From Alphaproteobacteria bacterium (GTDB lineage Bacteria; Pseudomonadota; Alphaproteobacteria; CAAGCB01; CAG-977), in the NCBI GenBank assembly GCA_900768875.1, contig CAAGEP010000006.1, positions 71,950 to 135,949 on the forward strand: 64,000 nt of DNA, in the 5' to 3' direction. The notes beneath the pieces are model-generated. The model did no database searches, was not told the DNA's origin, and worked only from the letters and a program-made list of their open reading frames with translations. Positions 809 to 44,800 of this stretch are shown one piece after another; within the stretch, counting starts at the first letter, position 1; every line of letters begins with the position of its first letter. The position numbers and the translations under genes were made by a program.

Positions 809-1588
809 ATGCCCAGACCGATGAAAAAACAACAGCCTTTGGTGCCGAAAAAAGACGCGGACGCGCCTTCTTCCGTTAATGCGAAAGATGACGCTCAGCC
901 CGTCAAAGCGCGCCCGAAAGCACAGGCGGCGCCTTCAAACGACGAGCTGACGGTTGATTTGTTGCGTGAACGCCGCTATTTGTGGACGGCGCGCGCGTTT
1001 GCGATTGTGTCGGCGGTGGCGCTGTGTCTGAATCTGGTTCTGATGATTGCGATGGCCAACTTGATGCCTTTGAAACGCGCCGAACCGTTTTTGCTGACAT
1101 TCCAAAGCAAGGACGATCAGGTTGTCCGCATCCGGCCGTTGGAATCCGATTTGGGGGCGAACGATTTGCTGACGGAAGCGATGATTCGCCAATATGTCCT
1201 GTTGCGCAACACGATGACCGCAGATATCGAAGAAATGTCGTTCCGTTGGGGCAATGACGGGCCTTTGCGCTGGATGTCGTCGCCCAATGTTTACAAACAA
1301 TTCGCCAAAACAATCAAAGACTGGCTGGCGCGCGTCAAATTGGAAGGCTTGACCCGCGAAGTCCGCATTGAATCCGTTGTTCGACAACAGGATATTTGGG
1401 TGGTTTATATTGTAACGCGCGATATGCTGCCCGAAGCCGACCAGCCCGTAACACAGCGTTGGCGCGTGAAACTGAAAGTCCGTTATTTCGGAATGTCGTC
1501 CAAAAACGAAGTCAAGTACGTTGACAGACTGAAAAATCCGTTGGGTTTTGTCGTGTCGGCTTATGCAATCGAAAGTGCCGCAGATTAA
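809..1588 (+). CDS. virB8: T4SS VirB8 (bitopic inner membrane protein; second paralog)
   Basis: 259 aa with an N-terminal cytoplasmic region, one TM (FAIVSAVALCLNLVLMIAMANL) and a periplasmic NTF2-like domain paralogous to ORF 1..593. Confidence 0.75.
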   Translation: MPRPMKKQQPLVPKKDADAPSSVNAKDDAQPVKARPKAQAAPSNDELTVDLLRERRYLWTARAFAIVSAVALCLNLVLMIAMANLMPLKRAEPFLLTFQSKDDQVVRIRPLESDLGANDLLTEAMIRQYVLLRNTMTADIEEMSFRWGNDGPLRWMSSPNVYKQFAKTIKDWLARVKLEGLTREVRIESVVRQQDIWVVYIVTRDMLPEADQPVTQRWRVKLKVRYFGMSSKNEVKYVDRLKNPLGFVVSAYAIESAAD

Positions 1589-1600
1589 AGAAGGTGTGCC

Positions 1601-3124
1601 GTGAAAAACAGTATTTCAATTCGTCTTTTCGCATTTGTTTTAACGGCGGCGGTCGCCGTGTCGGGGCGGGTTTCGGCTCAGCAGTCTGCCGCGCGCGAAT
1701 CCATGGATGCCGCCATTGAGCAGTCGAACGGCCAATATTCCGAAATCGACATGCCGTATCTGTGGTCGTTGGGCATGCAGCAAAAAGCGTGGAACAAACC
1801 GTTGGAACATTTGGGTGAAGGACAATCCAAACCGGGATATTCCCGCTATTTCTGGTCGCCCGATTTGGTACTGCCTTTGCGTATTCGCGAAGGAATGCAC
1901 ACGTTGATTAACTTTCCGTCGTGGGAATACATTGACAATGTGTTTTTGGGCAACGCCAGCGCATTCGGATCGCAAAAAGTCGCCGCAAACGCTTTGATGG
2001 TTTTTGCAAACAATCCGGAACTGGTCGGCATGGATACGAATATGATTGTGTTCGGCCGGTCGGGCAACCGCTATGTTTTTTATTTGCGCAGCGAAACGTT
2101 CAATGCGGACAGAATTACAAACGCCGTCGTCGATATTATTGTCAACGACAGTAAATTCGTTCCAGACGATTCGGGAAAAACCCCTTTTTCGGCGGGTGAG
2201 ACGGGTGTCGGCGCAACACCCGCGGGGGCGGCTTCCGTCGGCGGAACGGCAGGCAAAGCCAAGAGCAAAAAGCTGAAATTTTTTGATCCGATGAACGACT
2301 GGTTGGAAGATTTGGACGTCGATCCCGAAAAACTGAAATTCGATATTGATGTTTTCGTTCCCAATCCGGAAGACATGGAAATCGCCCCCGAACGCGTATG
2401 GCGCGACGAGATTTTCACATATATTGACTTGGGGCCGAAAGCGTTATCAATGACGCAGCGTCCGATTGTCAATCTGCTGGTGCAGGGCAGTGAAGTCCCT
2501 GTCGGTTTCAGAACGCGCGGGCCGAACGGACGGCTGATTGTGGTCGAAGGAATCGGCGATTTGGTGCTGCGAAACGGCAAACGGCTGTTGTGCTTGAAAA
2601 TTCGCAAAGATCCGAGCTTTGGCACGGATTGGGTCGAATATGACCAATCCGTACAGCCCGCTTATTCACCCGCGGGAATGAGAACCCCCGGCGTTTCGCC
2701 CCGCGGCGCGAACGAAATCGCCAATGAACAGGCGTCGTCTCAAATGGCGCGGCAGACGATAATACAGCGGGCGCAACAGCAGCAGATGTCCGACAATCTG
2801 TCTTTGACGGGCAGGAACGCACAGATTTCGGCGTCGTTTGCGAATCGCTATCGCCGTGCGGCGACGGAAACGATTGCGATTGAATTGGGCGCGGATGCTG
2901 AAATTTCGGCTCTGGAACGGAAGTGGGACAATATTTACCGCAAAAACAAAGACTTGCTTGCAAACTACGAGCCGTATTATTCGGTTGACGCGGTTGCCGA
3001 AGGCGAAACAAAGGATTTATTCCGTTTGCGCATCGGGCCCGTCGGATCGATTAAGGACGGCGACAAGTTGTGCAATCAGCTGGGTCGGCGCGGTGTCACC
3101 TGTATTGTGGTGCGGACGCAATGA
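1601..3124 (+). CDS. virB9: T4SS VirB9/TrbG/CagX family protein with C-terminal SPOR-like domain (507 aa)
   Basis: Signal peptide (AVSGRVSA|QQ). A VirB9 C-terminal-domain-like region (ERVWRDEIFTYIDLGPKA ... PIVNLLVQGSEVPV). The C-terminal ~70 aa resemble a SPOR repeat (DLFRLRIGPVGSIKDGDKLCNQLGRRGVTCIVV). Its stop overlaps the virB10 ATG (ATGA). Confidence 0.6.
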   Translation: MKNSISIRLFAFVLTAAVAVSGRVSAQQSAARESMDAAIEQSNGQYSEIDMPYLWSLGMQQKAWNKPLEHLGEGQSKPGYSRYFWSPDLVLPLRIREGMHTLINFPSWEYIDNVFLGNASAFGSQKVAANALMVFANNPELVGMDTNMIVFGRSGNRYVFYLRSETFNADRITNAVVDIIVNDSKFVPDDSGKTPFSAGETGVGATPAGAASVGGTAGKAKSKKLKFFDPMNDWLEDLDVDPEKLKFDIDVFVPNPEDMEIAPERVWRDEIFTYIDLGPKALSMTQRPIVNLLVQGSEVPVGFRTRGPNGRLIVVEGIGDLVLRNGKRLLCLKIRKDPSFGTDWVEYDQSVQPAYSPAGMRTPGVSPRGANEIANEQASSQMARQTIIQRAQQQQMSDNLSLTGRNAQISASFANRYRRAATETIAIELGADAEISALERKWDNIYRKNKDLLANYEPYYSVDAVAEGETKDLFRLRIGPVGSIKDGDKLCNQLGRRGVTCIVVRTQ

Positions 3125-31218: not shown

Positions 31219-32160
31219 TTACGAAAACAACAAAGAAGACAGCTTGCGCCGTCCCGCGACCGTAATCGGATTTGAATTGCCCAAAGAGGTGAAGATTTTG
31301 AACAATTCCTGCCGCGCCGCATCGTTGTTCCAATCGCGATTCGTTTTGAAAATCGTTATCAGCTCGTCAATCGCGGCTTCGGGTTTGTCGGCGGCGAACA
31401 AAGCGACGGCGTAATCGAAACGCGCTTGCAAATCATCGGGATTTTGCTTCAGCTTTTCGGCGGCTTTATCGACTTCGGGCGCGTTTTGGTTTTCAATCGC
31501 GATTTTCAAAGCGGCTTTGGCGGCATCCAGTTCGGGGCTTTTGACCGACGCGTCCAGCCCGTCCGCCATGTCTTGCGCGGCGTCGAATTGCTTGAGCTTG
31601 ATAAAGCAGCGAATCATTCCCGCAAAAGCGGCGGGATTGGCTTCGTCTTTTTCCAAAACGGCGGCGTATTGCCCCAATGCCGCGTCCGCGTTGCCGCTCT
31701 GCAATGTTTCGGCGGCTTTTTTCAGCAGTTCGTCCAGCGAAAGAGCGTCTTTGCCGATTAACGCCTGCATGACTTGTTTCAACTGCTGTTCGGGAATTTC
31801 ACCCGCGAATCCGTCCACCAAAGCACCTTTGGCGAAAATCATGGTTGTCGGCACACTGCGAATCCCCAGCTGAGCCGCCAAAGGCTGACATTCCTCGACG
31901 ACAAAGCGCACCAACGCCGCTTTTCCGTTTGCCAGTTTGACATACTTTTCCAACAGCGGAAAGAATCGGTCTTTTTCAACGGCGGCAGAGGTGAAATACG
32001 CCAAAACGGTGCGTTTTTTGGATTCTTCGGCAACATCGGCCTTAAAAGTCTGCATCGAACCGTCTTTGACAGCGGCGGCGGCAGGCGCGGCGGGAAGCGC
32101 GTTTTCGTCAAGCAACAAAGGCATTGGTATTCCTTTCGATTCAAAAATTTTCTGTATCAT
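31219..32160 (-). CDS. thioredoxin-domain + TPR co-chaperone (YbbN/CnoX-like)
   Basis: N-terminal thioredoxin fold without a CxxC motif, then C-terminal TPR-like helical repeats. Confidence 0.55.
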   Translation of the reverse strand: MIQKIFESKGIPMPLLLDENALPAAPAAAAVKDGSMQTFKADVAEESKKRTVLAYFTSAAVEKDRFFPLLEKYVKLANGKAALVRFVVEECQPLAAQLGIRSVPTTMIFAKGALVDGFAGEIPEQQLKQVMQALIGKDALSLDELLKKAAETLQSGNADAALGQYAAVLEKDEANPAAFAGMIRCFIKLKQFDAAQDMADGLDASVKSPELDAAKAALKIAIENQNAPEVDKAAEKLKQNPDDLQARFDYAVALFAADKPEAAIDELITIFKTNRDWNNDAARQELFKIFTSLGNSNPITVAGRRKLSSLLFS

Positions 32161-32267
32161 ATCCGAAAACGGGGGAAATTTAAACGATGTTTTTCAACAA
32201 TCTGACAGTTGTAACCCTTTGAAAAACAGGAAAATAAAAAAAATCGGCAAAAATATGAAAAAAAATG

Positions 32268-32295
32268 TTGCAAAACAAAAACAATTCTATATACT
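32268..32295 (+). promoter_or_regulatory. candidate sigma70 promoter for tRNA-Gly (TTGCAA-N16-TATACT)
   Basis: Sequence match ~20 nt upstream of the tRNA 5' end. Confidence 0.35.
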
Positions 32296-32317
32296 GCCCC
32301 TTGTTCAAGATGAGAGC

Positions 32318-32392
32318 GCGGGTGTAGCTCAGGGGTAGAGCGCAACCTTGCCAAGGTTGATGTCGAGGGTTCAAATCCCTTCGCCCGCTCCA
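32318..32392 (+). tRNA. tRNA-Gly (anticodon GCC), CCA encoded
   Basis: Cloverleaf: acceptor GCGGGTG/CGCCCGC, D-arm AGCTCAGGGGTAGAGC, anticodon loop CTTGCCAAG, T-arm GGGTTCAAATCCC, 3' CCA. Followed by the terminator hairpin CCGTCCATTAGGACGG + T7. Confidence 0.85.
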
Positions 32393-32398
32393 ATAAAA

Positions 32399-32715
32399 AA
32401 GCCGTCCATTAGGACGGTTTTTTTATTGGAAGTAGGCAAGGGGCTTGAACCCGAGAAGAGGGTTCGGCCGAAGCGAGAGCGAAGGCAACGCCGTGGAACG
32501 GCGGCCCGCAGGGCGAGCGTCAGCGAGTAAATCCCTTCGCCCGCAAAATTTGCCAAACCCTTAAATTCCAAGCCGTCCATTAGGGCGGTTTTTTTATTGG
32601 AAGTAGGCAAGGGGATTGAACCCGAGAAGAGGGTTCGGCCGAAGCGAGAGCGAAGGCAACGCCGTGGAACGGCGGCCCGCAGGGCGAGCGTCAGCGAGTA
32701 AATCCCTTCGCCCGC
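32399..32715 (+). repeat. two tandem ~146-nt units (32399..32544 and 32570..32715, ~98% identical, 171-nt period), each starting with the tRNA terminator hairpin and ending with a copy of the tRNA-Gly 3' end (AAATCCCTTCGCCCGC)
   Basis: Direct sequence comparison. The units look like att-site or tRNA 3'-half duplications of the kind left by integrase-mediated insertion and excision at tRNA genes. Confidence 0.75.
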
Positions 32716-32888
32716 AAAAGAAAGGCGTTTTCGGACGGCGGCGGTTCGACCGGAACAATCTGAATTCCGTTATGATAATTCGGTTGCGGCAAAATACGGG
32801 GCGGGCTTTTTTCTTGTCGAAAGAAAGGGAAACGCTTATACTTAAGGTACGGAAAAAATTGTTATTCTTAAAATCGGGGAAATTTTTA

Positions 32889-33206
32889 ATGAAAAAGTTC
32901 GTTTTTGTTTTATTGTGCGGCGGTATCGGCCTTTATGCCGAATCCGCTTTTGCCAAAGCGCAATGTCCCATGGGAATGACGCAGGAACAGTGCTGTTCAT
33001 CCAACGGCACGCTGACGATTGACGCGGCTAGCGCTCTGTGCGGATCGCAGGCCACAATCAAAGGCGTGTATTATGCGGGATGCGCCAAATGTCCCGCCGG
33101 ATTTGAAGAAGGCGGATCATCATCGTCGTCGTCATCATCCGCCACGGCGTTGTCCTGTAAATATCCTTTGACGCTGTCTTCGGACGGCTGTTGCTGCGGC
33201 AAATAA
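32889..33206 (+). CDS. small secreted cysteine-rich protein (105 aa) ending ...DGCCCGK
   Basis: Signal peptide MKKFVFVLLCGGIGLYAESAFA|KA. 12 Cys. A Ser8 run. C-terminal CCC motif shared with the downstream paralog. Confidence 0.55.
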   Translation: MKKFVFVLLCGGIGLYAESAFAKAQCPMGMTQEQCCSSNGTLTIDAASALCGSQATIKGVYYAGCAKCPAGFEEGGSSSSSSSSATALSCKYPLTLSSDGCCCGK

Positions 33207-33219
33207 AAAGGGGGCGGCC

Positions 33220-33723
33220 ATGAAGAAACTTTTGCTGGTTTTGATGATGAGCTTTGCGGCCTGCAATGCGCAGGCGCGCGCCATTAAGCTGGGAGATGCG
33301 GCATCGGATGTCGGAACGGGGACATCCGTTGTCAAAAAACGGGTATGCACGTCGAATTCTCAATGCATTACGTCGCTGTGTTTAGAGGGAAAATGCGTGC
33401 GTTGCAACAATGAAGATAAAAAATGCCCCGACGGTCAAGTTTGTCAAGTCAGCGGCGTTTGCGTTCCCGGCTATTCCTGCCGTTCTTCCGACGAATGTGA
33501 TTACGGTTATAAATGTGTGTCGGGAAGCTGTTCGTTGTGTTCCGCGGGCGATCCGGAGTGCCACTGCCCGTCCGGAGCAAAAGCCGACGGTCGCGGCGGA
33601 TGCGTATGCCCCGATGATTCGTTTTCTTATGACGGACGGTGCATTAAATACTGTGCTTATACCGCGTGCAAATCGGGATATACACCGACATACGACGGCA
33701 TGACGGGATGCTGCTGCCGTTAA
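33220..33723 (+). CDS. secreted cysteine-rich protein (167 aa; ~24 Cys) ending ...GCCCR
   Basis: Signal peptide MKKLLLVLMMSFAACNAQARA. Repeated C-x(3-6)-C-x-x-G-x-C modules. C-terminal CCC motif. Confidence 0.55.
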   Translation: MKKLLLVLMMSFAACNAQARAIKLGDAASDVGTGTSVVKKRVCTSNSQCITSLCLEGKCVRCNNEDKKCPDGQVCQVSGVCVPGYSCRSSDECDYGYKCVSGSCSLCSAGDPECHCPSGAKADGRGGCVCPDDSFSYDGRCIKYCAYTACKSGYTPTYDGMTGCCCR

Positions 33724-33777: not shown

Positions 33778-34998
33778 TTACTTCTTATTCGCTTCAATCA
33801 GTTTCGCATACAGTTCTTTGGTCTGCAGGGCGATGCTTTGCCAGCTGAAGTGTTTTTCGACGCGCAGACGGCCGGCTTGTCCCATTTTTTTCGCCAAAGC
33901 GGGATCACGAATCAACACGTTGATTTTTTCCGCCAAGCGTGCGGCAAAGTCTTCGCCGTCTTTCGGATCGTGCGGGAAAACGTCGGACAAATCGGGATCG
34001 ACCAGATAGCCCGTTTCGCCGCTGACGACGACTTCTTTGATACCGCCGACTGCGCTGGCGACCACGGGCGTGCCGCATGCCATCGCTTCCAGATTGATGA
34101 TGCCGAACGGTTCGTAAATCGACGGACAGCAGAATACGGCGGCTTGCGAATACAGAGCAATCGCGTCTTCGCGCGAAACCATTTCGGGAATCCAGACAAC
34201 GCCCGAACGGACTTGCTTCAAGGAAGCGACCAGCCCTTCCAGTTCGGCTTTCATTTCAGGCGTGTCGGCGTCGCCCGCGCACAAAACCAGCTGCGCGTCG
34301 GGGTCAAGCTTCGACGCCGCTTTCAGCAGGTACAGCAACCCTTTCTGACGGGTCATGCGCCCGACGAACAGCACATAAGGCTTGTCCGTGCGGATGCCGT
34401 ATTTCTGCAAAACCGCGGTGTCGTCCGTTTCTTTGTACTGATCAACGTCAATGCCGTTGTAGATAATCGACACTTTGGCGGGGTCGATTTTCGGGAACAG
34501 GCGCAAAACGTCGTCTTTGGTGCTTTGCGACACGGCGATGACCGCGTCCGCCATTTCCAAAGCCGTCTTTTCAACCCAGCTGGACACGTCGTAGCCGCGC
34601 CCCAGCTGTTCGCGTTTCCACGGGCGCAGAGGTTCCAAGGAATGAACCGTGACAACCAAAGGAATCCCGTACAGCATTTTCGCCAAAATGCCCGCGAAAT
34701 GCGCGTACCATGTGTGACAATGCGCGATGTCCGCCGTCATATTTTCGCCCGCGAACGCCAATCCTTCGTAAAGGGCTTTCAGCGGCGAAGTCAGTTCTTT
34801 CGGACATTCTTTGAACAAAGACGCGTCGGGAACGCGCCCGTTGACCGTCAAAGATCCGTCCTGATAATGCTGGTCGTGAAAGCTGCGAACCTCGACATCC
34901 ATCAGTTTCGCCAGTTCTTTGGACAGATATTCGACGTGAACGCCCGCGCCGCCGTAAATGTACGGGGGGTATTCGTTGGTAACAAACATAACTTTCAT
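33778..34998 (-). CDS. GT4-family glycosyltransferase, glycogen-synthase/GlgM-like
   Basis: Start MKVMFVTNEYPPYIYGGAGVHVEYL (ATG 34998, RBS GGAGG). C-terminal EX7E-type motif region (IYEPFGIINLEAMACGTPVV). The listed 645-aa ORF includes a spurious N-terminal extension. Confidence 0.65.
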   Translation of the reverse strand: MKVMFVTNEYPPYIYGGAGVHVEYLSKELAKLMDVEVRSFHDQHYQDGSLTVNGRVPDASLFKECPKELTSPLKALYEGLAFAGENMTADIAHCHTWYAHFAGILAKMLYGIPLVVTVHSLEPLRPWKREQLGRGYDVSSWVEKTALEMADAVIAVSQSTKDDVLRLFPKIDPAKVSIIYNGIDVDQYKETDDTAVLQKYGIRTDKPYVLFVGRMTRQKGLLYLLKAASKLDPDAQLVLCAGDADTPEMKAELEGLVASLKQVRSGVVWIPEMVSREDAIALYSQAAVFCCPSIYEPFGIINLEAMACGTPVVASAVGGIKEVVVSGETGYLVDPDLSDVFPHDPKDGEDFAARLAEKINVLIRDPALAKKMGQAGRLRVEKHFSWQSIALQTKELYAKLIEANKK

Positions 34999-35133
34999 AG
35001 AAAAAACCTCCTTAAAAAAAATGATTGTTAACAGGATTACCTTTTCAAAAGCGTTCGTCAATCTTTTAACTGGATTTTTTGCGAAATTTTTTATACAAAA
35101 GGGGAAAACGAATCCTATCAGGGGGCTTGTGAT

Positions 35134-36519
35134 ATGCTGAACAATATGTACGAACAGAATTTTTTGCAAAAAATGCCCGACGGAACGGTCAAACAGGTCA
35201 ACCCGTTCACGGGAACGCAGGTCTGGACGGTTCCCGGCCGCGGAAAACGCCCTACGGTCAATAAAAAACCCGACGAAAACGCCGTTCACGAATCCAAAGA
35301 GATCGAGGATTTCTGCTTTTTCTGTCCGTCGAATTATCTCAAAACTCCGCCCGAAAAGGCGCGCTTGGTCAAAATGCCCGACGGCACGTTCAAAGTGCTG
35401 GAAAATCTGAAAGTGTCCCAGCTGTTCGATACAACCGCCGAATTCCGCCGGATTCCGAACTTGTTTGAAATCATTTCCTATGAATACTGGGAAAAGAACT
35501 ACGCTTACGTCATTTCCGACAAAGCCAACGCCCACCGCGAAGAATACATTTCCGAACCCGAAGGACGGCAGCACGTTTTGGAAATCGTTGAAAACAAATT
35601 GCGGATGAGCGGGCTGTCGCGCGAAGAAATCGACAGCATTTCGTCGGGACGCAAGCTGAAAATGGCAAACAGCTTTTTCGCGGGCGGACATGAATTGATT
35701 ATCGGCAAACGCCACTTTGTCGAAGGAACGGACGAAAAAGCGTCGTCGGGGACTTTAACCCCCGAAATGCACTATCAGTACATCAACTTTACGATTGCCG
35801 CGCTGAAAGACATCTATCTGTCCAACCGCTATGTGCGCTATGTGACCGTGTTCCAAAACTGGCTGAACCAAGCGGGGGCTTCTTTCGACCACCTGCACAA
35901 ACAGCTGGTCGCGATTGACGGCGTCAGCGCGTCCAATGCCGCCGAATTTGAAATGGCGCGCTTGAATCCGAACATGTATAACGACTATGCCGTCAACTAT
36001 GCGGGTTATCAGAATCTGGTGTTTGCGGAAAACGAATATGCGGTCGCGTTCGCCGATTTCGGACACCGCTATCCGACTTTGGCGATTTATTCCAAAGCCG
36101 AGAAAAACCAGCCGTGGAACCAGACGCCCGAACAGGTGCGCGGGATGAGCGATCTGGTGCACGCATGCCACGCCGCGATGGGCAGCGAAGTTCCCTGCAA
36201 CGAAGAATGGTACTATCGTCCGCCCGCAATCGACATCGCCGTTCCGTGGCATATTTTGATTAAATGGCGTATCAGCAATCCCGCGGGGTTTGAAGCTGTG
36301 ACAAAAATCTTTGTCAACACCATTGATCCGTGGACGTTGCGCGACAAGGTTGTCAACCGTCTGTTTGAATTGCGCAAGGAAGGCAAAATCGCAAACGGCA
36401 TTAAAATCGCCGCGGAATGCGACTGCACGCCGAACAGCCTGCTGTACAATCCGTCCCTGCGTGTCGGAGGGGCGCATCCGTATGCGATGCGCGGCCGCGG
36501 CACGACAATGGATATGTGA
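35134..36519 (+). CDS. GalT-like HIT-superfamily nucleotidyltransferase/phosphorylase (galactose-1-phosphate uridylyltransferase-like)
   Basis: CxxC zinc-knuckle-like motif (CFFCPSN) and an H-x-H-x-Q motif (HLHKQL), as in GalT-branch HIT enzymes. Confidence 0.5.
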   Translation: MLNNMYEQNFLQKMPDGTVKQVNPFTGTQVWTVPGRGKRPTVNKKPDENAVHESKEIEDFCFFCPSNYLKTPPEKARLVKMPDGTFKVLENLKVSQLFDTTAEFRRIPNLFEIISYEYWEKNYAYVISDKANAHREEYISEPEGRQHVLEIVENKLRMSGLSREEIDSISSGRKLKMANSFFAGGHELIIGKRHFVEGTDEKASSGTLTPEMHYQYINFTIAALKDIYLSNRYVRYVTVFQNWLNQAGASFDHLHKQLVAIDGVSASNAAEFEMARLNPNMYNDYAVNYAGYQNLVFAENEYAVAFADFGHRYPTLAIYSKAEKNQPWNQTPEQVRGMSDLVHACHAAMGSEVPCNEEWYYRPPAIDIAVPWHILIKWRISNPAGFEAVTKIFVNTIDPWTLRDKVVNRLFELRKEGKIANGIKIAAECDCTPNSLLYNPSLRVGGAHPYAMRGRGTTMDM

Positions 36520-41871: not shown

Positions 41872-44800
41872 ATGACGGAAAAAACAAAGCATTATCCCGA
41901 CGTTTCGGCAAAAGCGGACTTTCCGCAGCTGGAACGCGATATTCTGGAGTATTGGCGCAAGGACGACACGTTCGCGAAATCCATCGCCAACCGCGACGCG
42001 GGCGCGAAAGGGTCGAACGAATACGTTTTCTACGACGGTCCTCCGTTCGCGAACGGCTTGCCCCACTACGGGCATTTGCTGACGGGCTACGTCAAGGACA
42101 TCGTTCCCCGCTATCAGACAATGCGCGGACACCGCGTCGAACGCCGTTTCGGCTGGGACTGCCACGGCTTGCCCGCGGAAATGGATACGGAAAAGTTCTT
42201 GGGCATTTCGGGACGCGCCGCGATTTCCAAATTCGGCATCGGCAAGTTCAACGAAACCTGCCGCGAACGCGTGCTGATGTACACCAACGAATGGAAGCAG
42301 ACCGTTACCCGTCAGGCGCGCTGGGTGTCGTTTGACAACGACTACAAAACGATGGATTTGAACTATATGGAATCCATCATTTGGGCGTTCAAGGAACTGT
42401 ATAAAAAAGGATTGATGTACGAAGGCGTCCGCATCCAGCCGTACAGCTGGGCGGCGGAAACCCCCGTGTCGAACTTTGAAACGCGTATGGATAACTGCTA
42501 TCGCGAACGCGAAGACCCGTCCGTGACCGTGATGTTCACGTTAAACCCCGTCGAGGGCGAAACAATGCCCGTCAAAGCGCTGGCGTGGACGACGACTCCG
42601 TGGACTTTGCCGTCAAACTTGGCGCTGTGCGTGAACAAGGAATTCGATTACGACTTTTACGAAGAAGACGGCGTTCAATATGTTCTGGCTTCCGCTTTGG
42701 TCGGACGCTACAAACGCGAACTCGCCAAAGCCGTCAAAGTCAAAACGGTCAAGGGCGCGGAGCTGGTCGGACGCACGTATCAGCCGTTGTTCCCGTACTT
42801 TGAAGGGACGAAAAACGCTTTCCGAATCATTCAGGCTGACTATGTTTCGACCGAAGACGGCACGGGAATCGTTCACATCGCCCCCGGATTCGGCGAAGAC
42901 GACATGATTGCTTGTCAGCCTTACGATATTCCCGTGGTCTGCCCCGTGGACGGCAAGGGCTGCTTTACCAAAGAAGTCCCCGATTACGAAGGCATGCAGG
43001 TTTTTGAAACCAACGAACCGATTATCAAACGCCTGAAAGCCGAAGGCAAGCTGGTGCGCAAGGAAATGTACAAGCACAACTATCCGCACTGCTGGCGCAC
43101 GGACACCCCGCTGATTTACAAGGCGATTAACAGCTGGTTCGTCAAAGTCACGGCTTTCCGCGATAAAATGGTCGCGAACAACCAAACCATCAACTGGATT
43201 CCCGAACACATCAAAAACGGGGCGATGGGCATGTGGCTGGAAGGCGCGCGCGACTGGTCGATTTCCCGCAACCGTTTCTGGGGCGCGCCCATTCCCGTGT
43301 GGAAATCCGACGATCCGAAGTATCCGCGCGTCGACGTGTACGGTTCGATTGCCGAACTGGAAAAAGACTTCGGCGTCAAAGTCACCGACCTGCACCGTCC
43401 GTTCATCGACACGCTGGTGCGTCCGAACCCCGACGATCCGACGGGCAAATCCATGATGCGCCGCGTCGAGGACGTTTTGGACTGCTGGTTCGAATCGGGA
43501 TCGATGCCGTTCGCGCAGGTGCATTACCCGTTTGAAAACAAGGACTGGTTCGAAAACCATTCGCCCGCGGATTTCATCGTCGAATACTTGGCGCAGACCC
43601 GCGGCTGGTTCTATACCCTGATGGTGATGAGCACCGCTTTGTTCGACCGCGCGCCGTTCAAGACATGCTTGTGCCACGGTGTCGTGCTGGACGAAAACCA
43701 GCAAAAGCTGTCGAAGCGTTTGCGCAACTATCCCGATCCGACGGACGTGTTCAACACGCTGGGGTCGGACGCGCTGCGGTGGTTTTTGGTGTCTTCGCCG
43801 ATTTTGCGCGGGGGCAACCTGTCCATCGACCGCGAAGGCAAGGAAATCGCGAAATCGTCGCGCAAAGCCTTGATTCCGCTGTGGAACGCGTTTTACTTCT
43901 TCACGCTGTACGCGAACGCCGAAGGGCTGAAAGCCAAAGAACTGTATGCGCCGAAAGACATTCTTGACCGCTATATTCTGGCAAAAACCCGCGATTTGGT
44001 CAAAACGCTGACCGAAGAACTGGACGCGTGCGACATTGTCAGCGCTTGCGCCGCGGTGGCGGATTTCCTTGAAATCATGAACAACTGGTACATTCGCCGT
44101 TCCCGCGCGCGGTTCTGGGACGTTTCGCAGGGGACGGAAGCGTTCGATACCCTGTACACGGTTCTGGTCACGCTGTCCAAAGCGTTGGCGCCTTTGCTGC
44201 CGTTGACGTGCGAATACATCTACCGCGCTTTGACGGGCGGGGAAAGCGTCCATTTGACGGATTATCCCGATTACAACGCTTTCGCGGCTGACGACAAGCT
44301 GGTGGCTGACATGGACTTTGTGCGCGCCGTGTGTTCGACCGCCAAAGCGATTCGCGAAGATCACAAGCTCCGCAACCGCCTGCCGTTGGCGTCGATGACG
44401 GTCGCGGGCGCGAAAACGGGGGCTTTGAACGCTTACGCCGAATTGATTGAGGACGAAGTCAACGTCAAAAATCTGATTTTGGCGCAAAATGTCGAAGAAC
44501 TGGCGGATCAAACGCTGTACATCATCACGCCGCTGGTCGGCAAGCGTTTAGGGCGGTTTATGAAAGACATTCTTGCCGCGTCCAAAACAACCGAATGGCG
44601 CAAAAACGACGACGGCACGCTGTCAATCGCGGGACAGACTTTGAATCCCGACGAATTCGAATTGCGCTTGGTTTTGAAAGACGGCAAAGCGGGACAGGCT
44701 TTGCCCGACAACACGGCGGTCGTCGTTCTGGATACGGAAATCCGTCCCGAACTGGAACGCGAAGGCATCGCCCGCGACTTTGTCCGCGCGATTCAGCAGA

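Follow-up and report, generated by a model that had tools for sequence, protein, structure and literature searches.

Does the repetition of a tRNA 3′ end downstream of its own gene mark the boundary of an integrated island, or can it belong to an element of another kind? The question is raised by two tandem units that follow a tRNA-Gly(GCC) gene in an uncultured alphaproteobacterium. The window analyzed here is the whole stretch of DNA, 64,000 nt (64 kb) in length. A sequence-only reading of the window had suggested that the units are attL/attR scars of repeated insertion and excision and that the downstream genes may be island cargo, with a small mobile or tRNA-derived element as the fallback.

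Organization of the tRNA-Gly locus

The tRNA-Gly(GCC) gene is called by both ARAGORN and the Rfam tRNA model, in agreement with the earlier reading. Unit 1 begins 7 nt past the tRNA gene on the same strand. The two copies (32399–32548 and 32570–32719) are 150 nt each and share 99% identity, with 2 differences, an A/G in the loop-side stem of the hairpin and a C/A in the 5′ arm. Tandem Repeats Finder places the array at 32399–32719, with 1.9 copies of a 171-nt period that match at 98%. The description of two near-identical units 171 nt apart therefore holds, and the unit length of 146 nt given with it is obtained when each unit is ended at GCCCGC. Both units open, as had been described, with the hairpin AAGCCGTCCATTAGG(A/G)CGG followed by T7, and both end in a 16-nt copy of the tRNA 3′ end. 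This copy is exact and corresponds to tRNA positions 57–72, i.e., the final 4 nt of the T-loop together with the 3′ strands of the T-stem and of the acceptor; the identity between tail and tRNA ends ahead of the discriminator base and CCA. The 16-mer has exactly three exact matches in the 64 kb, at 32373, 32529 and 32700, and allowing up to 2 mismatches yields one further match at 43553 (chance expectation 0.24; 0 of 100 shuffles reach 4).

Table 1. Features of the tRNA-Gly(GCC) locus and its two tandem units (positions in the window).
Feature	Position	Strand	Description
Promoter of tRNA gene	32268..32295	+	Predicted by consensus scan; sigma-70-like, TTGCAA, 16-nt spacer, TATACT
tRNA-Gly(GCC)	32318..32392	+	Encoded CCA; ARAGORN; Rfam tRNA model, 68.6 bits
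Terminator hairpin T1	32399..32426	no strand	Opens unit 1; CCGTCC ATTA GGACGG between A-run and T7
Unit 1, 5′ arm	32423..32446	+	TTATTGGAAGTAGGCAAGGGGCTT; inverted, diverged tRNA 3′ end and trailer
Unit 1, part of 5′ arm			GGCAAGGGGCT; pairs with unit 1 tail (closing helix P1)
Unit 1, hairpin P2	32447..32465	+	GAACCC GAGAAGA GGGTTC; 3′ strand copies the tRNA T-stem 5′ strand plus TTC
Unit 1, GC-rich core module	32466..32528	+	GCCGTGGAACGGC hairpin, GCCC-GCA-GGGC hairpin, GAGCGTCAGCGAGT box
Unit 1, tail	32529..32544	+	AAATCCCTTCGCCCGC; exact tRNA copy
Spacer between units	32545..32569	+	25 nt, AAAATTTGCCAAACCCTTAAATTCC
Terminator hairpin T2	32570..32597	no strand	Opens unit 2
Unit 2, 5′ arm	32594..32617	+	
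Unit 2, hairpin P2	32618..32636	+	
Unit 2, core module	32637..32699	+	
Unit 2, tail	32700..32715	+	Exact tRNA copy

An inverted copy of the tRNA end follows each hairpin, a feature that the earlier reading had missed. The stretches 32423–32452 and 32594–32623 are imperfect inverted copies of the tRNA 3′ end and trailer, with 78% complementarity over 41 nt and the palindrome centre in the terminator loop. T1 is the middle of an imperfect 41+41-nt palindrome (32367–32452), and its placement between an A-run and the T7 run suggests that it can act bidirectionally. Because the inverted copy extends beyond the CCA into the trailer and terminator, the 5′ arm is regarded as a DNA-level palindrome; the same extension led us to reject a reading of the arm as the primer-binding site of a retroelement. 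The core module occupies the place of the T-loop. The tRNA-Gly sequence is identical in the relatives L004, L008, L013 and L144, and the 17-mer of P2 is also present in L121, L148 and L160–L164.

Each unit is made up of four parts. The terminator hairpin of the tRNA comes first, and then the T-arm and acceptor 3′ strand of the tRNA in inverted orientation. A short hairpin follows, which carries the T-stem 5′ strand sequence again on its 3′ side, and after it a GC-rich multi-hairpin module of ~63 nt in the T-loop place. This module leads into a direct copy of what is left of the T-loop, together with the 3′ strands of the T-stem and acceptor. This four-part composition suggests that the tRNA-end copy is a built-in arm rather than a recombination scar.

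Homology to RtT repeats

Both units are very probably RtT-type tRNA-linked repeats, non-coding and structured, and built from the 3′ part of a tRNA. With equally good confidence, the 178-bp repeats at E. coli tyrT/rttR and the E. coli tRNA-Ser arrays are considered their homologues, and in this respect the fallback suggestion of a small mobile or tRNA-derived element was essentially right. The Rfam RtT model (RF00391) aligns over its full length with both units (model 1–130 of 130), with 35.6 and 37.0 bits (E 4e-5 and 2e-5). Neither unit reaches the curated gathering score of 45 bits, which is an operational cut-off. E. coli Ser-linked copies also stay under 45 (34.6–43.9 bits), and a Raoultella tRNA-Lys copy scores 79.3 bits. 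Since the units, like the E. coli Ser-linked copies, fall below the cut-off, we file them as divergent homologues.

A second covariance model, R1, was built from 17 enterobacterial Tyr-, Ser- and Lys-linked copies only and includes no window sequences. With filters off, R1 retrieves solely these two units from the 64 kb (38.3 bits for unit 2 and 36.1 bits for unit 1; E 6e-8 and 2e-7), the next best match having 10 bits and an E-value of 0.7. R1 also matches units in alphaproteobacterial relatives (E 3e-7 to 6e-4) and a unit in a Chlorobiales MAG (E 3e-11). The core module shares 80–84% blastn identity with E. coli copies.

The organization of the locus agrees with that of the E. coli tyrT-tyrV rttR repeats. 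In both, a tRNA gene is followed directly, on its own strand, by tandem units of ~170–180 nt, and each unit has a tail that copies the tRNA 3′ end from the T-loop on, a complementary 5′ arm, a GAAC..GGTTC hairpin and a GC-rich core (..AACG-hairpin-CG-GCCCGNAGGG-CGAG..AGCGAGTAA). Tails that copy the adjacent tRNA 3′ end are likewise found in Tyr-, Ser-, Lys- and Pro-linked copies, and the arm/tail pairs follow the tRNA: GGGGAAGGAT/ATCCTTCCCC for Tyr, GGCGGGGAT/ATCCCCGCC for Ser, TCGTGTAGGATG/CATCCTGCACGA for Lys and GGCAAGGGGAT/ATCCCTTCGCC for Gly, the last pairing at 10 of 11 positions as the closing helix around the inner hairpins. Among 120 core-pattern loci, each Enterobacterales match behind a tRNA closes with all or part of that tRNA's own 3′ end; these tails are mostly complete and are shortened in a few terminal units (Ser-GGA, Lys-UUU). 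The same subfamily occurs behind tRNA-Pro(CGG) in other uncultured alphaproteobacteria, with a tRNA-Pro tail.

Some differences from the known arrays were observed. The host is an uncultured alphaproteobacterium, whereas E. coli RtT belongs to Enterobacterales, and the tRNA is Gly(GCC) rather than Tyr. The window tails stop at position 72 without CCA, unlike the E. coli tails, which carry it, and each window unit contains an intrinsic terminator, which the tyrT repeats lack. A terminator inside the unit, together with an arm and tail matching the local tRNA, is shared with the Enterobacterales Ser(GGA) and Lys(UUU) arrays, which have 1–5 units. In the Ser type the tail continues through the CCA, trailer and terminator and the units abut directly, whereas the window units are separated by 25 nt of unrelated spacer; a Ser-like junction is seen in the relative L159. 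The Ser type also has an additional hairpin, CAACTGGCGCAGCCAGTTG, that is lacking in the window units.

It is extremely improbable that the units arose as tandem copies of the tRNA-Gly gene that then decayed. Each unit does have a copy of the T-stem 5′ strand and of the last 16 nt of the tRNA ahead of the discriminator base, but the D-arm, the anticodon arm and the acceptor 5′ strand are all absent, and ARAGORN and the Rfam tRNA model find one tRNA only and none in the units. The interior is the RtT core, common to elements behind unrelated tRNAs. With no remnants of the cloverleaf 5′ half and an interior that aligns to the RtT core, the pseudogene reading can reasonably be taken as refuted.

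A BLAST search of plasmids and phages with the unit returned one Serratia record with RtT-like copies and otherwise chance terminator matches. A metagenome search for a pattern of 19 + 17 exact bases taken from the window core found 0 matches. Literature searches found no paper containing the core sequence strings and nothing that joins RtT with intergenic repeats. RtT repeats have been a decades-old curiosity of the E. coli tyrT locus. The present units extend the kind to uncultured Alphaproteobacteria, behind tRNA-Gly and tRNA-Pro, and to a Chlorobiales MAG, with the arm and tail re-tailored to each tRNA, highlighting copies that standard Rfam annotation overlooks.

Secondary structure and possible expression

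The 7-helix structure of the enterobacterial alignment has 90.5% of its cells paired, and 20 of 36 pairs are changed on both sides; 0 of 500 shuffles are as good, and slid controls are 33–50% paired. The minimum-energy fold of unit 2 (−53.9 kcal/mol, z-score −3.4) contains the same helices as the family. The tail is proposed to pair with the inverted arm, closing a 5–7-helix fold that would resemble the acceptor/T-arm stack of a tRNA. An inverted duplication alone, with no selection for an RNA fold, would also make arm and tail complementary.

One explanation sees the units primarily as a functional small RNA, a regulator or sponge of the RtT kind that is cut from the tRNA-Gly transcript and kept by selected function. 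The strong covariation of the family helices is in its favor, and so is the excess of G:T over A:C cells (22 vs 8), which weakly favors folding of the tRNA-sense strand. In L008, an A-to-G change converts an A-T pair to G-T, and the array is persistent across related lineages. The E. coli annotation lists rttR as a small RNA of 171 nt that arises by processing of the tyrT transcript, according to the account in PMC7542023, which cites Bosl and Kersten 1991. The function of RtT is not known even in E. coli (PMC7542023; bioRxiv 10.1101/2024.07.17.603846). Here, a strong intrinsic terminator heads each unit and a scan found no promoter-like site preceding either, so expression of the units is doubtful. 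The element is also lost or truncated in the relatives L013, L144, L146, L148 and L170, and SNPs within the species disrupt pairs in the 5′ arms of L004 and of unit 1. On this evidence, maintenance by a selected RNA function appears rather unlikely, and real expression of a functional RtT-like RNA at this locus is judged less likely than not. If an RNA is made, it would arise only through read-through of T1. The read-through RNA may then be trimmed by tRNA-processing enzymes at the tRNA-like end, and the product would be a stable RtT-like RNA of ~120 nt, in line with the E. coli report.

The 3′ETS of leuZ is a functional spacer of a tRNA transcript that serves as an sRNA sponge. Like it, the units would be a non-coding part of a tRNA transcript that could be freed by tRNA processing. 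There is no sequence relation between the two, and at the present locus a terminator separates tRNA and element. A conserved Tpr-like peptide was considered as well and rejected; the arginine-rich ORF over the unit lies in a different frame from that of E. coli tpr and has no ATG.

We give an even chance to the proposal that the element is kept chiefly as a DNA repeat of the tRNA trailer, either self-maintaining or neutral. The growth and shrinkage of the array could proceed by homologous recombination between the tRNA-end and terminator copies.

Array history and the integration scenario

The two units within a genome differ at 2–3 positions, compared with 3–10 differences between genomes, and fixed differences are common to both units of one genome, showing that the units evolve in concert, via gene conversion or unequal crossing-over. 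The two-unit array was found in independent assemblies, namely the conspecific L004 and the relatives L161–L163. The short or decayed copies in L148 and L121 escaped Rfam searches at E-values up to 1.

A reading of the units as scars of an integrated island is not supported for this window. A history of elements inserted repeatedly at tRNA-Gly and then excised or decayed, with the downstream genes as their cargo, is regarded as very unlikely, although the locus shares several properties with the attL/attR sites of tRNA islands. Many tRNA-targeting integrases cross over in the T-loop. The direct repeats of the tRNA 3′ end, present in three exact copies, begin within the T-loop, and the gene content on the downstream side of tRNA-Gly differs in every genus-level relative. 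The 25-nt spacer ends in TCCAA and could be a remnant of deleted cargo. Among Enterobacterales, an E. coli array adjoins an integrase gene, and several terminal units are cut inside the tail.

Other observations argue against integration in the window. The absence of an integrase, already pointed out in the sequence-only reading, holds for ~5 kb on either side (gene table of L004) and for the ORFs at 29–38 kb, and neither foreign cargo nor a distal repeat was found: the expected second boundary, a further exact 16-nt tRNA-end copy, does not occur in the whole 64 kb. Between the repeats lies only an RtT unit of ~130 nt, a conserved, structured sequence whose homologues occur across tRNA types, classes and phyla with a conserved fold, unlike random remnants. 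Integration also leaves the inverted arm unexplained. The spacer, which is absent after unit 2, has a homologous counterpart in L161–L163, and the two-unit array with its spacer predates the split from these relatives.

The downstream genes do not support the cargo claim. Within ~5 kb to either side, the gene table of L004 contains sigma-70, DUF4921, GT4, two small proteins and thioredoxin/TPR, as well as a Lon substrate-binding domain protein, FtsK, LolA and a hydrolase. The GT4 protein, a glycogen synthase, shows 85–93% identity across the clade and is always paired with DUF4921; the downstream GT4/DUF4921 genes are a core glycogen-synthase pair and not island cargo. This pair is usually distant from tRNA-Gly in the clade. 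The GC content between 32.8 and 36.5 kb (0.47–0.58) is near the flank values and gives no island signal. Neither of the two Cys-rich proteins encoded in the window had a Pfam match. Contig breaks near GT4 in a 93% relative were considered as an RtT effect and rejected, being caused by tuf. The 313-aa ORF at 31219–32160 has its true start 11 codons downstream.

The idea of recombination at the tRNA ends, though not supported for this window, contains some truth elsewhere. In L168, one strain of a related lineage, AT-rich cargo of 1.87 kb fills precisely the interval between two units at tRNA-Pro, and both of its junctions fall at the tRNA-end copy, CGACCAATA. Its position between two units suggests that tRNA-end copies can act as recombination points. 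Pfam found no family for the proteins of this cargo. The RtT case therefore indicates that reiterated tRNA 3′ ends need not signal an island boundary, which matters for island-prediction tools relying on tRNA-end repeats.

The core as a discrete module

The core was also observed as a discrete module of ~60 nt dispersed across phyla. Without a tRNA, it is present in many copies per genome in Pseudomonas and other Gammaproteobacteria, Verrucomicrobiota and Gemmatimonadota. In gammaproteobacterial palindromic repeats (GTCATTCCGG..CCGGAATGAC) it forms a clean present/absent insertion at GGA|ATCC. Rfam at the gathering threshold named no family for the core in 18 core loci outside tRNA contexts. 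This shared module, together with the cargo between units in L168, provides handles on the origin of the element.

Tentatively, RtT units may be composite, consisting of a tRNA fold-back and a mobile ~60-nt module, with the extra tRNA ends as landing sites for cargo; we see this as a speculative model that is less likely to be right than wrong. In this model the 3′ part of the local tRNA, copied as a hairpin (fold-back), would provide the host portion, and the ~60-nt module would have been inserted into the T-loop at GA|ATCC or TTC|AAATCC. GCGNAGC-type mini-hairpins of the module would suit recognition as single-stranded DNA. The added tRNA-end copies could serve as landing sites that collect integrating cargo, as in L168. 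If true, the model would link tRNA genes, RtT arrays and island hot spots mechanistically.

The dispersed core also bears on whether the units are a generic REP- or MITE-type intergenic repeat that lies beside the tRNA by chance. REP/BIME and MITE-like repeats are, like the units, short, GC-rich, hairpin-forming and terminator-associated, and the multicopy core inserted in palindromic repeats away from tRNAs would fit such an origin. We nevertheless consider it very unlikely. Many tRNA-independent copies were found neither within the 64-kb window nor among the related copies: the core occurs only twice in the window, both times behind the tRNA, and 8 of 8 contexts in the lineage and its relatives are tRNA-linked with an arm and tail matched to the tRNA. 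The units show no terminal inverted repeats of their own and no target duplication. The whole unit, and not the core alone, aligns to RtT; unlike in REP or MITE repeats, its palindrome derives from the 3′ part of the host tRNA, and the element is tied to tRNA genes.

The tRNA-Gly locus and its two units

The tRNA-Gly(GCC) gene in the window is followed by two tandem repeat copies, unit 1 and unit 2, which mismatch at two positions. Both copies start with the hairpin AAGCCGTCCATTAGG(A/G)CGG followed by T7 and end with AAATCCCTTCGCCCGC, which is identical to tRNA positions 57-72. This 16-mer is found at only three places in the window, namely the tRNA and both unit ends. With up to 2 mismatches allowed, four occurrences were observed against 0.24 expected by chance, and none of 100 shuffles reached four. 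The repeat and tRNA calls and the exact 16-mer bear out the sequence-only reading in its description of tandem units ending in tRNA 3' end copies. It overlooked, however, that each hairpin is followed by a stretch repeating the tRNA 3' end and trailer in inverted, imperfect form. Because of this inverted copy, a 41+41-nt palindrome centered at the terminator loop runs from the tRNA end through the terminator into unit 1. The spacer in the tandem pair is 25 nt long, with TCCAA at its end.

Features of the tRNA-Gly locus and of comparison loci (window positions unless a locus is named; L-numbers denote loci from other genomes or metagenome contigs)
Feature	Position	Strand	Source or remark
tRNA-Gly(GCC)	32318-32392	+	ARAGORN and Rfam tRNA model
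Tandem repeat, period 171 nt, 1.9 copies, 98% matches	32399-32719		Tandem Repeats Finder
Unit 1, 150-nt copy	32399-32548		repeat search
Unit 2, 150-nt copy	32570-32719		repeat search
Arginine-rich open frame (..EPEKRVRPKRERRQRRGTAARRASVSE*)	32348-32530	+	
Core module, about 60 nt	32466-32528 and 32637-32699		
Two small Cys-rich proteins, 105 and 167 aa	32889-33206 and 33220-33723		signal-peptide-like N-termini
Glycogen synthase (GT4)/DUF4921 divergent pair	33778-36519		glycogen synthase name from several sources
tpr ORF inside E. coli rttR	L003:1288-1377	-	
E. coli array of 4.5 RtT-like units	L001:1-1720		
Cargo locus in L168	L168:564-2818 vs L164:2590-2818		tRNA-Pro(CGG)
Module comparison loci	L024-L143		especially L029, L026, L077, L110
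Module in L036	about 1342-1497	-	opposite strand
Module in L034	about 1932-2215		oriented coordinates

Relationship to RtT

In a permissive Rfam scan of positions 32200-32900, the whole RF00391 model ("RtT RNA") aligned to both units, at 35.6 bits (E 4e-5) and 37.0 bits (E 2e-5); the curated cut-off is higher, at 45 bits. The E. coli K-12 record of the RtT locus in the tyrT operon contains tyrT, tyrV, the 171-nt small RNA rttR and the tpr ORF, and the tRNA-Tyr 3' end AATCCTTCCCCCACCACCA terminates every unit of the tyrT-locus sequence. When the window units were searched against E. coli genomes by blastn, the core was matched with 80-84% identity at RtT-like elements 3' of tRNA-Ser. These Ser-type units are composed of a tRNA-Ser 3' end, an intrinsic terminator and an RtT core, and they likewise score under the Rfam cut-off (34.6-43.9 bits). 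For an independent alignment of 17 enterobacterial Tyr-, Ser- and Lys-linked copies, with the window sequences left out, a 7-helix structure was drawn up and is well supported, with 90.5% of cells paired and 20 of 36 pairs changed on both sides. None of 500 shuffles was as good, and slid controls reached only 33-50% pairing. The covariance model R1, built from this alignment and run with filters off over all 64 kb, detected exactly the two units, at 38.3 bits (E 6e-8) and 36.1 bits (E 2e-7), the next match scoring 10 bits (E 0.7). Given the whole-model RF00391 alignment and the independent R1 matches, we regard the window units as divergent homologues of RtT by sequence and structure comparison. 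They extend the RtT-type tRNA-linked repeats to a new group of hosts and to new tRNAs. The cross-phylum reach, tRNA-tailored arms and composite build of these elements go beyond the annotations and the few papers on RtT that were consulted.

Anatomy and predicted fold

Comparison of each tRNA with its own element (Tyr, several Ser variants, Lys, Chlorobiales Ser and the window Gly) revealed a common four-part plan. On the 5' side stands an arm that reverse-complements the 3' strands of the tRNA's T-stem and acceptor. A hairpin, GAAC..(loop)..GGTTC, comes next, and its 3' side duplicates the T-stem 5' strand together with the first part of the T-loop. After the GC-rich core comes a tail that holds the remaining T-loop and the 3' strands of T-stem and acceptor. 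Both arm and tail co-vary with tRNA identity, being GGGGAAGGAT/ATCCTTCCCC for Tyr, GGCGGGGAT/ATCCCCGCC for Ser, TCGTGTAGGATG/CATCCTGCACGA for Lys and GGCAAGGGGAT/ATCCCTTCGCC for the window Gly (10 of 11 positions paired). According to this plan, the unit is the tRNA 3' part copied as a hairpin, its T-loop holding the core, and the tRNA-end copy is an arm of the element. The predicted fold of unit 2 in this shape has -53.9 kcal/mol and a z-score of -3.4.

Relatives and concerted evolution

Among named homologues, the best matches to the flanking proteins are labeled "MAG: Alphaproteobacteria bacterium". A conspecific contig from another sample (L004) carries the same two units, and a closer contig set (L161-L163) shows the same locus with at least two units and a homologous spacer. 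In L008, where the flanking protein shows 93% identity, the contig breaks after the tRNA, the terminator and the first part of a unit. Of the genus-level relatives, three (L013, L144 and L146) share the tRNA and lack a unit, and L148 has a shortened, decayed unit. Units have been gained, lost and truncated among these relatives. Units differ from each other at 2-3 positions within a genome versus 3-10 between genomes, and several of the changes are fixed across both copies of a given genome, for example GCGTCAGCG (window), GCGCAAGCG (L004) and GCGTGAGCG (L162). This pattern, with fewer differences within than between genomes and some fixed in both units, is concerted evolution, by gene conversion or unequal crossing-over.

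A second pattern search of metagenomes detected the same subfamily behind tRNA-Pro(CGG), with the tail AAATCCTATCACTCCGACC, in another uncultured alphaproteobacterial lineage (L160), and relatives of L160 (L164-L169) also carry it. R1 detects the units of alphaproteobacterial relatives, L160 and L164-L169 included, with E 3e-7 to 6e-4. The tail of the L159 unit continues into TCCA, trailer and terminator, matching the run-on of the E. coli Ser type.

Both ends of the 159-kb contig ERZ808240.42 (L162 and L163) lie inside the RtT array. Among five contigs of the 93%-identity lineage (L008-L012), the break in L008 falls inside the first unit, and in each of the other four it falls at or within the tRNA gene. 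The array may confuse short-read assemblers; alternatively, the breaks may reflect a second locus copy or a circular path in the assembly graph.

tRNA-end copies as junctions

The sequence-only reading interpreted the units as stacked attL/attR scars of elements integrated at tRNA-Gly, with the downstream Cys-rich genes and GT4/GalT-like pair as candidate island cargo. This has little support in the window itself. No integrase was found within about 5 kb of tRNA-Gly in the ORF list and the conspecific gene table, the further tRNA-end copy proposed as a downstream island boundary was not found in the window, and the GC content of the downstream genes is unremarkable. The GT4 gene encodes a glycogen synthase with 85-93% identity across the clade and about 67% identity to sequences from Rhodospirillales; it is divergently paired with DUF4921 in every relative examined and usually lies far from tRNA-Gly. 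The neighborhoods of this pair vary, with nrdD/nrdG, tRNA genes or a GH97 gene adjoining. For the pair of Cys-rich proteins, Pfam gave no match; both are conserved, in unchanged gene order, in L004 and L162. On the other side, gene content beside tRNA-Gly differs in every genus-level relative, and the spacer ending in TCCAA could be the remnant of a cargo event.

Other genomes give the scar interpretation some substance. At tRNA-Pro in L168, a 2,026-bp insertion begins exactly behind a unit tail, with 1.87 kb of AT-rich DNA followed by CGACCAATATAAAAG, a terminator and a second unit. The cargo therefore sits between two units, and both of its junctions fall at the tRNA-end copy CGACCAATA, so that a tail has served as a junction. 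Its two ORFs (323 and 63 aa) have no Pfam match and include no integrase. A two-unit array would take on this layout after integration into its middle tRNA-end copy, and homologous recombination through a unit would equally produce it. In E. coli, a tyrosine integrase gene adjoins a partial tRNA-Ser end, and the L001 array starts directly behind that end; in several Enterobacterales (L050, L053, L059, L116 and L123) the last tail stops after AATCCCCCC, with unrelated DNA beyond. The L001 array and the cut tails suggest that tRNA-end copies are used as secondary attachment sites; the window units are not island scars.

In sister strains of L168, the region past the neighboring tRNA-Leu(UAA) is variable and contains defence-type genes (GmrSD/HNH with an EcoRI methylase, Mrr and WYL).

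Proposed working of the element

Copy number could change by recombination between the repeated tRNA-end/terminator segments, the array being mainly a self-maintaining or neutral part of the trailer; we give this an even chance. Activity of the units at the RNA level is less certain and, from sequence features, seems rather doubtful. A strong terminator lies ahead of each unit and a consensus scan found no promoter at either one, so RNA would arise only via read-through. In such a transcript, the closing helix, a mimic of the acceptor/T-arm stack, would be the signal for tRNA-processing enzymes to cut out an RNA of about 120 nt, in line with what is reported for E. coli rttR. Wobble statistics (22 G:T cells versus 8 A:C cells) mildly favor folding of the tRNA-sense strand.

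The arginine-rich open frame in the unit recalls the 'protamine-like' tpr ORF of E. coli. A conserved tpr-like peptide is unlikely, however, because the two frames differ relative to the shared GAGTAA and the window ORF has no ATG; the frame is probably a by-product of base composition.

The core module outside tRNA contexts

A genome scan with the pattern GCCCGCAGGGCGAGCG-N(0-4)-AGCGAGT retrieved at least 120 loci. Among the matches listed, those in Enterobacterales and one in Chlorobiales are tRNA-linked, and those in Pseudomonas and relatives, other Gammaproteobacteria, Verrucomicrobiota and Gemmatimonadota are mostly without a tRNA. The listed tRNA-less matches have very different flanks and often come from several contigs per genome. 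The module layout is fixed, running from an AGCG-N-AGCG(G)AG box through an A-rich linker, a GCC-NNA-GGC hairpin and a GCCC-GCA-GGGC hairpin to a second GAGCG-N-AGCGAGT box. A Thiohalobacterales MAG locus and a gammaproteobacterial MAG contain the same palindromic repeat (GTCATTCCGG..CCGGAATGAC) with and without the 60-nt module; where present, the module sits precisely between GGA and ATCC, and there is no duplication of the target. E. coli units share the junction of this repeat (TTCGA/module/ATCC), and the window reads TTC/module/AAATCC. With clean present and absent copies and the same junction in the E. coli and window units, the RtT core looks like a discrete, possibly mobile insertion. 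No Rfam family was found for the module, nor a paper describing it.

In L036, from a gammaproteobacterial MAG that has a dense tRNA array, the apparent two halves of a tRNA gene flank the module, resembling an anticodon-region insertion; neither Rfam nor ARAGORN calls a tRNA at this site. In L034, a Prosthecobacter MAG, the module is found within, or at the close of, an open frame resembling the C-terminal part of a type I restriction methylase.
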